In this document: positions 40,464-44,949 of the stretch, in pieces | Numbering within the stretch: position 1 is the first letter of the stretch | Layout of the letters: each line of letters opens with the position of its first letter | Source of the DNA: Amphiscolops sp. MND2022 | Lineage: Eukaryota | Assembly (NCBI GenBank): GCA_964187785.1 | Contig: OZ076410.1 | Coordinates: 45,818,001 to 45,882,000, forward strand | Direction of reading: 5' to 3' | Length of the DNA stretch: 64,000 bases | Program-made: the position numbers and the translations under genes | Notes under the pieces: generated by a model | Told to the model about the DNA's origin: nothing | Databases searched by the model: none | What the model saw: only the letters and a program-made list of their open reading frames with translations

Positions 40464-43400
40464 TTATACATTTATTGGGGATGTTGTAACACCATCAGCA
40501 TGCACAAATCGTTTGTAATAAAAATATGTTATAGACATTTTGTTTTGTTTATATGTGAACATGTTTCCTCGGTAGTAGCGAAATCCTTTGTTGGATCCTT
40601 CGTAGGGCACTTTGTTGAACAAGACAGATTTAAATCTTTCCAAAGGCGACTCTAGATTTTTGTTGCTTCCCTTGAGAGCCATTTTCATCTTTTTGTTGTT
40701 TTCGTTAAATGCGCAGTAGGTTTTGCTGTTGAGACAAATCATTTCCGTTCCTTTCCATTCAATTTTGAAAAGTCCAGGTGTTCTTTTATCCATTGCACCG
40801 TGTTCTTTGCAGCAGCTTCGTGTTAGAAAATTCAGTTGAGCATTTGGTAGATAGCAATCTTCTTGTTCATGATAATGCTTTGCATTTTCTTGCATTTGTG
40901 ATTTCGCAACCTCATTGAAACATTCGTATAGATCGTTTTCTGTCAAAGCCATGTAGAAAGAGTCGGTGTCCATCTCTATAGCCCGAAAAGTTCTTGGTCT
41001 CATAATTCTGCCGAGAAAGTCGTAACGAAACTCCAACATTCTTTGTTTTCCATTGTTTAGTACTGTAAAACCAACGAGAATGGGTTCATCGTGCACAATT
41101 TTTCTTTTAGCCATGTTAATTTCGTATATTTTTTCATCCACAATGTCATAGGTCCGGAATTTTGGAGAATTGATTTTTTGATCAACTTTTCTTTCATCAA
41201 CAAAAAGCGTGTTTTGAAATTTTGATTTATTTATGAGTTGGATGCCATATGCGCTGTTTCCAATAAGTTTGGATGTTTCTGCAATCACACTGAGCGACTT
41301 GTCTACATCTCCTCGACGCCTGTTTTCTGTTACAAAATCCAAAAAATCTTTGAATGGTTGTGCTTTTTTGTAACAAAGAAACTGGTAGCATTTTGTAACA
41401 ACCAAACCATGTTCCAAACACCACTTGATGTAGTCGGTAGATAACATTATCTTTTCTCCAAAGTAGCTGGCGACAAGACACTTCCAACCGTTTTTCATCA
41501 AACCGAACTCTTTGGCATAATCTTGCATTTCCGCGGAAAGATGTTGCCTCTCGACAGTTGTATTTTTGAAGATGGGTGGAAGTTCTTTAAAGTGTTCCTT
41601 CAAGTGATCTGGAACGTGGATGTCAATTTCAGCTAATCCATAAACTTTTTCTTTCCACACTGCATTGAGAAATGTCTCCAACGTTGAAAACTTTTCTGGT
41701 AGACAATCAAGATTTCTCACAAACTCTTTTATTTCGGGGTCTGTTTCTTTAAGCTGATTCCATTGACACTCCCATTGCTCAATCACACGATATCCTGCAT
41801 TTAGAATAACTTCCGTACGCTCCTTGTCATTTTCACGTATTTTTGCCGGTGTTTTTCCATGAATTAGAGGCGGCTGAAACATTTAGCAGTTTGAAGCACT
41901 TCCAAAAAAAAGTATGATTCATTGTTTCAAAATTTAAATTTTGTCAACTAACCAAACTTATACAGTCATGAGCGTGATGATAACATCCCATAAATTCCCA
42001 AACAGTTTTACAGGTCACACAGACAGCATCGGGAACGAGTGTTCTAACTTGGTGGCGCATATTTGTGAAACGAGTGGTCACTGAACAACTTGGATTTTGG
42101 TTGTGATGATGTTTGGAGATAAAAGCAACATACTGTCGTTCGGCTTGTAAAAATTTACTTTTTTCGGAAACTAGAGCGTTGTCGCTGTTGCACACGTAAT
42201 GAGTCAAAGGTCCAGTTGGCATGTTTCCACCAATAGCAGATAAATACAAAGCGTTGGCATCATAACCAACTATTGACTTGACTTTTTCATCATTGATGAC
42301 AGTTTCATTAACTTTTTCGTAACGACTAAACACTATACTTGGCCCTCCAACAATGTTGTTTCGAACACTTTGATACAAATCCTTGTCTTTATAATTGAAC
42401 AAGAAAATTCCTTCGCCTTTGTTTGATCGATGTAAAATTTTGTTGGCGGCACCGCTGAGTGTTAGAGTTTCCTTCAGCAAGTCAATCGAGTGTTGTTCAT
42501 AGAAACGGGCCATTTTGGTCACAGCCTTGTGAAGGGGATAAACATCAAGGTTATTGTAATATTGTAAATAATCCATCATTGTTTGAAACCCTTCGTGGTC
42601 CCATGTTTGTTTAATGTCCTCATATACTTCCAACCCTGTCTTGGGTCTATTTGGATCAGTGAGGCTGCCTCCGTTTTGAACAAAACTGTTAATCTCGTTC
42701 TCCAAAACGTTTTCATTCTTCAGTGAGGAAAAGAATGCTTCGTAGGGTGGTAATGAAGTTTCTTGTAAAATTTCAAAACTGGTGAGATGTTCGTAAGGAA
42801 AGAAAAACTTGCTGACTTCACTACCATAGGCTTTCAAAAACTTGTCTAATGATGTACCAGCTGCAACAAAATGACTACAGTCCATGAAGCGCAGGTTTGG
42901 TGTTGAAAGGAGTAGGAAGCGAGTATTTCGTTTAATACACTTGATGGATGACAAGCTAACGAAACGCTGCAGCGACTTTAAAAGATATGGCTTTATCAAG
43001 TTCAAATCGTAGAATCCACTATTGAAACCAACAACTGGTAGCTGGTCAATGTATTGTAAGAACTGTGTTCGTGTTCTTTTCAGGAATCTGTGCAATCTCT
43101 GCTGTGTGCTGGATACAGTAGTAGTAGCGGTAGTGGTTTCGTTTAGAGCAGCTCCTTCATCATCTGAGTGTGTGTTCTCTCCCATGGTGGTGTCATCTGG
43201 TTCAAATTCTAATAACATTTCATCAATTTGTTCTAGATAGGGTAAAAATTTTTGTCGCTGGTGAGAGATATTTTTGAGGGACAAGTCCATTAAATAGTCT
43301 ACAAACTTGTCTACCAAACAGTTAGGGTCTTTTTCCACTAACCACTTTGCAGCCGATTCGTCTGTTGTAATGTTTTGATATATTGCAACCGATACGGGAA

Positions 43401-44949
43401 TATGTTGATGAGTAAACTCCAATTTTTTCGTCTTGATGAAACAATCATCTTGGTTGATATCAAATCCATTTGTTTGCTGTTGTGATGATGACTTTTGTCT
43501 CAAAATGGATTCAAAATCAAAAGTAACAAAAGACTTGTAGAATCTATGCTCATGCGGAACACAAACATCAAACACGGTCTCTAGCGTCGTGAAAAAAGTG
43601 TCAGTGGGCGTGTATTTCCCACCTGGATAGGAGTGATCTGACTTTTCCGAGCATGACTTTAGATGGCGATTCAAATCAAACATTCGTGAAAAGTACTGTT
43701 CACACTTGATGCACTTGAATCGTCGAAAAAATACGTTTAAATTTCGGATTAGACAAGTGTGATTATTGACTAGAAGCAGATCAACAAAATTGGAGTGCAT
43801 GTCCATTTCCAACGTTTTACTTCGGTATAACAATTCACCTTGTACTACATTGTCTGCATCTAGTTCGGCTGAAAACACTCGGATGGCGCAAGAACAAAAC
43901 TTTTCAACGTCTGGCAGGTCCGTCAGCTCAATACCGGTAAAATCTTGAACGTTCTTTTGCACTCCGCGAATGTACAATTGAAAAAGCTCCATTGTTTTAG
44001 ATTCCAGTCCTTGCATGGAGTTTTGTTGGAAGGCAGCCAAGGCACGAAAAACGCAAAGGTTATCATTATGCCATCTTTTTGTGGATTTGTTGAGGGTAAG
44101 TGTCCACACACTCCTTGCAGATTTGATGAAATCCGGAATATCTATTACATCTTGATCGGTGCTGCCCATTGGCAGGCGTGACAAGTGTGTGGCATGTAGA
44201 GAGACGTTGGTTAAACAGAAGAAAGTCCATTTTGTGCTGTCGCGAAAGTTTGTAAATTTTTCAATGAAGTCAGTGCTGAAAATTTCTTGTTTTAACAGTT
44301 TGAATTGTTCAAAGTTTTCTACTAGCTTTGGTTTGGGTAAGACCGTGGTATTGTCACTTGAGTAGTAGTACCGATATTCGCCAGTTTCGTTGTTTGAGAG
44401 AATGTATCCAAAACTGACATTCATTTTGGATACCCTTTTTATTTTTGCAAAAGCTTCATCGAGTACATTACAAATATTATCAACCCCTTCATCCTTCAAA
44501 AGAAAATTGACAGTTGTTTGGTGGGGTAGCAAAACAATTTGATCCCCCATAATATGTCTCTTTCTACGAACAAGTTCTTTCAGTGATTCATCGTCGCCAA
44601 ATTGGGCATCGTTCAGTTGAGAATTTGGTGATTTTAACATTTCATGTTCGGTATGTGTATGTTGTTGCAACTTGAGCATTGTTGCAAAGGTTGAATCACA
44701 GTAGCCGCATTTGAAGTTTTTCTTTTTCACATGCTTCAGAGATTTATGAGTGTTGAGGTCTTGGCTACTTTTTGCAATGTAGTTGCACTGTCCGCAGTGT
44801 AAATCATCCTTGTCATGTGTCTTTTCATGTCGGTTGCGATTGTATTTGCGCGAAAACTCTTTTCCACATTTACTGCAAACAAAAGTTACAACGGATTGCT
44901 GAGAAGTTGAAGGAGTTGTTGTTGATGTTGCTCCATCAGACGACTGCAT
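40464..44949 (-). CDS. polB: Protein-primed family B DNA polymerase (~1468 aa, two exons) with N-terminal C2H2 fingers, putative terminal protein, vOTU-like domain and Vsr-like insertion
   Basis: ExoI TFDFES, ExoII GFNSGFYD, ExoIII YNNLDV, motif A GYDANALY, motif B KLIGNSAYG, motif C EMDTDSFY, plus TPGLFKIE and KTYC. ORFs 41944..45054 and 40464..41882 are joined by an in-frame intron. Confidence 0.95.
41874..41952 (-). other. Intron in polB (79 nt)
   Basis: GTTAGT donor, TGTTTCAG acceptor, phase 0; joins HHAHDCISL to PPLIHGKTPAK and removes the in-frame stop. Confidence 0.85.

Follow-up and report, generated by a model that had tools for sequence, protein, structure and literature searches.

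The window analysed here, 64,000 nucleotides (nt) of contig OZ076410.1 from Amphiscolops sp. MND2022 (assembly GCA_964187785.1, positions 45,818,001 to 45,882,000), contains an 18,186-nt Polinton/Maverick element (38760..56945, no strand assigned) whose DNA polymerase gene, polB, is the main subject of this work. The gene lies on the minus strand, as do all polB features given below, and is divided between two open frames, 41944-45057 (Met at 44949) and 40464-41882, which hold all of the polB motifs listed in a preliminary description of this DNA. Exon 1 (41953..44949, 999 codons) and exon 2 (40464..41873, 469 codons plus a stop, including polymerase motifs B and C) would yield a spliced product of 1468 amino acids (aa), as that description had stated. 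Compared separately with a profile of 13 uninterrupted homologs, the two pieces match consecutive parts of it (positions 6-839 and 852-1300, respectively). The preliminary description had further proposed that this product combines three C2H2 zinc fingers, a terminal-protein-like region, an OTU-like protease, a fourth finger and a Vsr-type nuclease split by an intron, with the fingers translated as part of polB. Each of these components was recovered in the analyses below, the fourth finger being of the C2HC rather than the C2H2 type.

The element belongs to a young, multi-copy and recently spreading family with at least 40 genomic copies, since a search of the 1.07-Gb genome with a 1-kb probe yielded 125 candidates, 40 of which were scored as matches at 94-100% identity. 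Copy comparisons use the 39 copies other than the one in the window, or 40 sequences when the window is included. The start ATG of exon 1 is present in 38 of the 39 copies, and polB is interrupted in the window and in every one of the 39. The interrupting interval (41874..41952) is 79 nt long, in phase 0 and 73% A+T, with GT at 41952 and AG ending at 41874. The donor GTTAGT and the closing CAG are found in all 39 copies, while the length is free to vary (79 nt in 22 copies, 78 nt in 17); conserved GT and AG, free length and a frame restored upon removal are the properties of a spliceosomal GT-AG intron. Among 28 GT/AG pairs whose removal keeps the frame, only 41952/41874 produces a motif spacing (40 aa) like that of the homologs (37-49 aa, n = 58 of 128), all other pairs giving 23 aa or less. 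Divergence within the intron is 0.059, compared with about 0.05-0.06 at third codon positions in most domains, and shared insertions and deletions in the coding parts are all multiples of three, except for two single-base ones at 44925. The intron contains a perfect 16-nt palindrome (41928-41943) whose centre varies among copies and whose arms are mostly kept; apart from this palindrome of its own, it showed no similarity to the sequences on either side of it within the element.

These data also bear on whether an intron is needed at all, as the two frames could instead encode two proteins, the second starting from the ATG at 41882, or be joined by ribosomal recoding. This in-frame ATG lies 9 nt before exon 2, and gene callers place a 472-aa protein at this position. 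However, the ATG is lost in 15 of the 39 copies while GT and AG stay, the split would part the zinc ligands of one small domain, and no single frameshift fits because the gap is 78 or 79 nt. We therefore reject this possibility as very improbable.

A second concern is that the interval is a disabling insertion and that the family is copied by the polymerases of sister families, uninterrupted polB families being abundant in this genome. The selection data speak against this. For variants shared by at least 3 of the 40 sequences, the ratio of nonsynonymous to synonymous polymorphism (pN/pS) is 0.06 in fingers 1-3 (3 versus 13 changes), which are the most constrained part of the gene, 0.14 in the terminal protein, 0.27 in the OTU domain, 0.30 and 0.28 in the two Vsr parts and 0.13 in the rest of exon 2, whereas single-copy variants in the same domains give 0.65-1.27. 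This pattern is that of selection during replication followed by decay after insertion. Both exons are thus under purifying selection in their shared variants, catalytic residues are kept in 39-40 of the 40 sequences, and a record with 17% divergence has kept the same break. Overall, the disabling insertion is largely refuted, and we reject it as having next to no chance of being correct. The 83%-identical record starts at the same break point, and no match above 69% was found in this genome over the first 110 residues of this record. A FastTree of 117 C-terminal sequences, rooted at its midpoint and restricted to records of at least 380 aa, groups the window with two broken records in a single clade (support 1.0); two fragments of unknown state adjoin this clade, and the other sequences comprise 53 uninterrupted and 61 uninformative ones. 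Because the broken forms are a single clade among uninterrupted homologs, one gain is the simple reading, and a single lineage-specific gain of the intron is likely.

Retention of the intron would expose a stop codon 7 nt into it, kept in 38 of the 39 copies, and truncate the protein to 1001 aa, before motifs B and C. While the preliminary description was correct on this truncation, it also saw in it a possible regulatory switch, to which nothing in the DNA points. Under regulated retention acting as an on/off switch, splicing would be withheld in certain tissues, by the host or by the element itself, to leave the 1001-aa product with its fingers, terminal protein, protease and exonuclease, and retention would split the zinc site of the nuclease and remove the polymerase active site; splicing control of the P element provides a precedent for such a scheme. 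On the other hand, the donor GTTAGT and the acceptor TTTCAG look like ordinary strong sites, early stops are expected in any A+T-rich intron, and sister families that lack the intron have multiplied within this genome. Conservation of the stop itself says little, because it adjoins the donor. A switch of this kind is, in our judgement, quite unlikely, and the intron is probably spliced constitutively.

Neither polB piece returned a DNA polymerase family from Pfam at E ≤ 0.1; we assign the gene as a polymerase from its motifs, from homologs bearing PF03175 and from the profile match of both pieces. The 3'-5' exonuclease region (42544..43518), with motifs that we take to be those of family-B enzymes, has Asp478, Glu480, Asp648 and Asp802 kept in 39-40 of the 40 sequences, and the motif A aspartate, Asp897 (42259..42261), is conserved in the copy alignment. 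As judged by alignment to the uninterrupted homologs, a Vsr-type insertion is located after motif A and is itself divided by the intron into a first part (41953..42141) with Glu937, Asp974, Cys989, His992, His994 and Cys996, and a second part (41754..41873) in which the Cys of WEC, present in 40 of 40 sequences, provides the last zinc ligand. With the window protein excluded, the profile of 13 homologs matches E. coli Vsr at E 4.9e-8 with the zinc ligands aligned, and the window protein, mapped through the homolog alignment, keeps these ligands and a nearby His. The upstream Asp and Glu are presumably catalytic. Matches of the Pfam families Vsr and DUF559/MTES_1575 to this region were weak and below cut-off, and a single-sequence search of PDB with the Vsr region of one homolog gave no match. 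The likeness to E. coli Vsr (PDB 1VSR, 1ODG, 1CW0) covers GC-x-x-H-x-H-x-C, WEC, an Asp further upstream and the His that follows the Cys, whereas the domain in the window is inserted in a polymerase, has one His replaced by Met and is encoded by a gene split between the zinc ligands.

For the N-terminal part of exon 1, a structure model of residues 20-440 built from a 149-row alignment reached a predicted local distance difference test (pLDDT) score of 89.6, versus 31.6 for a single-sequence model of exon 1, and shows the chain folded into three fingers followed by an alpha/beta domain, another domain and then the fourth finger. In a wide structural search, residues 141-257 matched the little-finger/PAD domains of Y-family polymerases, including 4IR1, with Z scores of 5.2-6.2, which places a terminal-protein-type domain at about residues 137-257 (44179..44541), the region in which the NVSFGY and STKW motifs are located. 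For the following domain (residues 273-405, 43735..44133), the first 14 matches were all OTU domains (best Z 7.6, root-mean-square deviation 3.9, 111 aligned residues), and the conserved residues Cys299 and His397 (39 and 40 of 40 sequences, respectively) are those of a vOTU-type cysteine protease. Both structural results repeat what the accessible text of Krupovic et al. 2024 (PMC11161782) gives for Polintons, in which domain D1 is little-finger/PAD-like and D2 is a vOTU. Two features of the terminal protein-vOTU arrangement of the Polinton polymerase (pPolB) thus occur here, namely a D1 fold whose loop preceding the last strand bears a hydroxyl residue, and a vOTU fold with Cys and His. Because the loop column that holds the priming residue in PMC11161782 is Thr or Ser in 124 of 138 homolog rows (Thr in 103, Ser in 21), we infer that Thr239 is the primer residue. 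The same text puts forward the hypothesis of cleavage between the terminal protein and protease domains; a candidate position for self-cleavage is Gly262 (44164..44166; Gly in 120 of 144 rows), a placement that is our own inference.

The zinc fingers flank this pair of domains. Finger 1 (Cys25-His45, 44815..44877) matches Pfam zf-C2H2 at E 1.1e-6, above the curated cut-off, and has a beta-beta-alpha fold in the model; finger 2 (Cys52-His73, 44731..44796) and finger 3 (Cys81-His102, 44644..44709) are seen in the model, with ligands kept in 39-40 of the 40 sequences. The fourth finger (Cys413-Cys433, 43651..43713) is likewise present in the model, and metal ligands overall are conserved in 37-40 of 40 sequences. 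The combination of a beta-beta-alpha fold with Cys2His2 ligands is that of a classical DNA-binding C2H2 array. In a Foldseek search against PDB the finger fold matched DNA-binding arrays, with only zinc-finger proteins among the matches listed, and an N-terminal sequence profile likewise returned only fingers among the 60 PDB matches listed. The fingers share one open frame with the remainder of exon 1 and, because shared variants in them show purifying selection, they are a working part of the polB frame.

We also asked how widely this layout occurs. A terminal protein plus protease profile without fingers found 3887 proteins, of which the best 150 were examined. Within these, fingers (1-6 of them) occur in 33 of the 48 homologs having at least 60 upstream residues, several of the other 15 looking degraded or truncated; the fourth finger occurs in 37 of the 49 homologs that are long enough, and Vsr motifs in 11 of 13 long ones. 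Named homolog records come from coral, lancelet, sea star, brittle star, sea cucumber and sea slug. The genome analysed also holds two sister families whose uninterrupted frames, 1450-1491 aa long, encode three fingers, Vsr and the other domains of the window protein, and the Atlas has clusters with fingers, some of which also carry polymerase or endonuclease VII families. Among viral proteins, the best fold match was A0A7D4VFN9 of Drosophila-associated adintovirus 2 (E 7.1e-13), named 'C2H2-type domain-containing protein'. Because the sister families, the homolog set and the adintovirus record share it, the finger-bearing layout is a clade trait and not special to this copy. Further uninterrupted polB families of this genome have frames of about 1440-1510 aa, and some of them exist as many near-identical copies. 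One sister polB family also occurs as back-to-back pairs (L090/L091, L092/L093, L098/L099) within inverted repeats of 7-8 kb that are 99.5-99.8% identical; none of these loci matched the ATPase, integrase or capsid genes, and L090 has a run of N at its centre. The pairs represent a palindromic element with polB alone, or else an artefact of assembly.

The idea that the fingers read the terminal repeat, raised in the preliminary description, amounts to a sequence-specific origin-binding module for a GAG-rich part of that repeat. By the usual recognition code, the helix of finger 1 (Arg-1, Asn3, Arg6) would presumably specify GAG, which occurs three times in the 63-nt repeat. The helix residues of homolog fingers often look DNA-contacting, with Arg at +6 in 34 and at -1 in 18 of 69 fingers (a set that includes fourth fingers), and the fingers are, as described above, the most constrained part of the gene. 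However, the expected number of such triplets in 63 nt is 1.3, so that three are within chance, and only finger 1 yields a readable triplet, fingers 2 and 3 giving no matching neighbouring triplets. TGEKP-type linkers are absent from the window protein and from the 150 homolog records, and the number of fingers in homologs ranges from 0 to 6. Sequence-specific origin binding is accordingly unlikely, and the specificity prediction did not uphold the earlier idea. Low-specificity gripping or tethering of DNA is the most likely role, although the fingers may instead bind protein.

Comparison with described systems shows which parts of this architecture are already published. The pPolB of PMC11161782 resembles the window protein in its little-finger/PAD terminal-protein domain, its vOTU with Cys and His, its exonuclease and its palm; the window adds three fingers in front, one behind the protease, the Vsr insertion, the intron and a candidate Thr primer. 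The main text of that paper has no occurrence of 'zinc finger', 'C2H2', 'Vsr' or 'intron', and its supplement text none of 'zinc', 'C2H2', 'finger' or 'Vsr'. The pPolB2 of marine nematode and mollusc Polintons (Jeong et al. 2023, PMC10748475) shares the Vsr-type nuclease inserted in the polymerase but, in the accessible text, is described without fingers or polB introns. The homolog records named above suggest that the Vsr-bearing group is wider than nematodes and molluscs. Adintoviruses (Starrett et al. 2021, PMC8502044), together with A0A7D4VFN9, are alike in their OTU-PolB, integrase, ATPase and capsid genes, while the accessible adintovirus text differs from the situation here in mentioning neither fingers on PolB nor splicing. 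Vertebrate and nematode Mavericks (PMC8097293; bioRxiv 10.1101/2022.07.12.499685) share inverted ends, a 6-base-pair (bp) duplication and core genes, but the available text describes those core genes as intronless, whereas the polB of this family is interrupted in every copy examined. In the parts available, PMC3671162 mentions C2H2 for other proteins only, the zinc-finger gene of PMC11071296 is a separate one, and PMC12220804 reports group I introns. A finger-bearing polB layout was not found described in the literature searched, which covered accessible text and left subscription papers, Repbase entries and figures outside. The terminal protein, the vOTU and Vsr are therefore already published, while the fingers are widespread yet seemingly undescribed.

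Taken together, we consider it probable that polB is a Polinton replication gene whose transcript loses one 79-nt intron through host splicing and thereby encodes a single fingered polyprotein. Such a protein would carry, in order, three fingers, the terminal protein, the OTU protease, the fourth finger, the exonuclease and a polymerase with the Vsr domain after motif A. Thr239 would prime synthesis at the end of the element, and the protease would cut at about Gly262, between the terminal protein and itself, so that fingers 1-3 would remain on the terminal protein at the genome end and finger 4 with the polymerase. By binding DNA with little sequence preference, the fingers would keep the priming domain at the end of the element or anchor the free linear genome to host chromatin, and the zinc-containing Vsr domain might nick or trim replication or integration intermediates. 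The intron, gained once in the lineage under this account, would do no harm to an element whose transcription takes place in the host nucleus, and no regulatory role has to be invoked for it.

Several points weigh against this account. The model stops at residue 440, so the polymerase core and the Vsr domain lie outside the modelled part, and for the two domains inside it the Z scores are below 8 (OTU) and about 6 (terminal protein), values for which the aligner warns of a merely common arrangement. Finger 1 has Arg at what we take to be the usual hydrophobic position of its helix, and the window Vsr domain has Met where E. coli Vsr has His before Gly-Cys. Variant counts ignore relatedness and recombination. 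The target of the fingers and the substrate of the nuclease are predicted, and splicing of the 79-nt interval is deduced from DNA. Finally, according to its accessible text, the D1 domains studied in PMC11161782 have Ser or Tyr where the window protein has Thr as its candidate primer.

A bolder version, in which a host-type finger array on the terminal protein of a large clade of animal Polintons would remain attached at both ends of the genome once self-cleavage has occurred, tether free viral DNA to chosen host chromatin and thereby steer replication and integration, and in which the new intron of this lineage would put the polymerase under host splicing control, is one that we regard as doubtful but conceivable. 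Under the account that we prefer, a finger array under strong selection on a terminal protein bears on how Polinton ends are recognised, on terminal protein handling and on the integration site, and the candidate priming Thr and cut site are small testable pieces. The polB intron, which is of moderate interest and well supported at the DNA level, would make this lineage dependent on nuclear host splicing, contrary to the usual description of the core genes as intronless, and surveys based on open reading frames would score intron-bearing polB elements as dead. Because the copy set cleanly separates selected from neutral variation, the family is also a good case of intron gain.

The assignment of 38760-56945 as a Polinton/Maverick follows from its ends and its core genes. 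A left terminal inverted repeat (38760..38822, plus strand) begins AGTAGTAG and pairs over 63 nt, at 98% complementarity, with the right repeat (56883..56945, minus strand); a 6-bp target-site duplication, read directly, flanks them (left copy 38754..38759, plus strand; right copy 56946-56951), and in most copies homology begins at or near 38760. In addition to the pPolB, the plus strand encodes a packaging ATPase (47213..48016; Pfam Pox_A32, E 1.2e-10, above cut-off) and a retroviral-type integrase (48774..49895; Pfam rve, E 5.8e-12). The capsid evidence is weaker and consists of Atlas features only: a probable double-jelly-roll (DJR) major capsid protein (50381..51736, plus strand; Atlas score 0.98) falls in clusters with a DJR-like domain in 24% of members, with a recognition value under the threshold of the tool. 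Two further open reading frames are of fitting size and place and gave no significant Pfam family match. One (51726..52154, plus strand) is a probable maturation protease, a name assumed from its position and motif pattern, with a sub-threshold Pfam deubiquitinase match; the other (52187..53134, minus strand) is 33% identical to a gene beside the ATPase and integrase of a sister family and is presumably a minor capsid protein. No related loci were found among the viral and metagenome contigs searched.

The copies are mosaic: L021 stays within 0.3% of the window in most bins of 41944-44949 but departs by 5.3% in a single 300-nt bin, and two divergent types of the OTU region occur among copies; this suggests recombination between copies. 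A plus-strand frame of 220 codons (44903-45565) overlaps the polB start and shows low divergence among copies, with one shared 15-nt deletion, and about four TTAGGG telomere-type repeats lie within the element at 55016-55041. Elsewhere in the window, a long terminal repeat retrotransposon (3130-8841) has direct repeats that are 97% identical and a fragmented protease-reverse transcriptase-RNase H-integrase frame. Nested tandem duplications with periods of 1.8 kb and about 4.8-5.4 kb occupy 22000-34800 and include a reverse-transcriptase fragment at 28298-28819. They are enclosed by a 37-nt inverted repeat (16830-16866 and 36983-37019, 20 kb apart), possibly the ends of another element.

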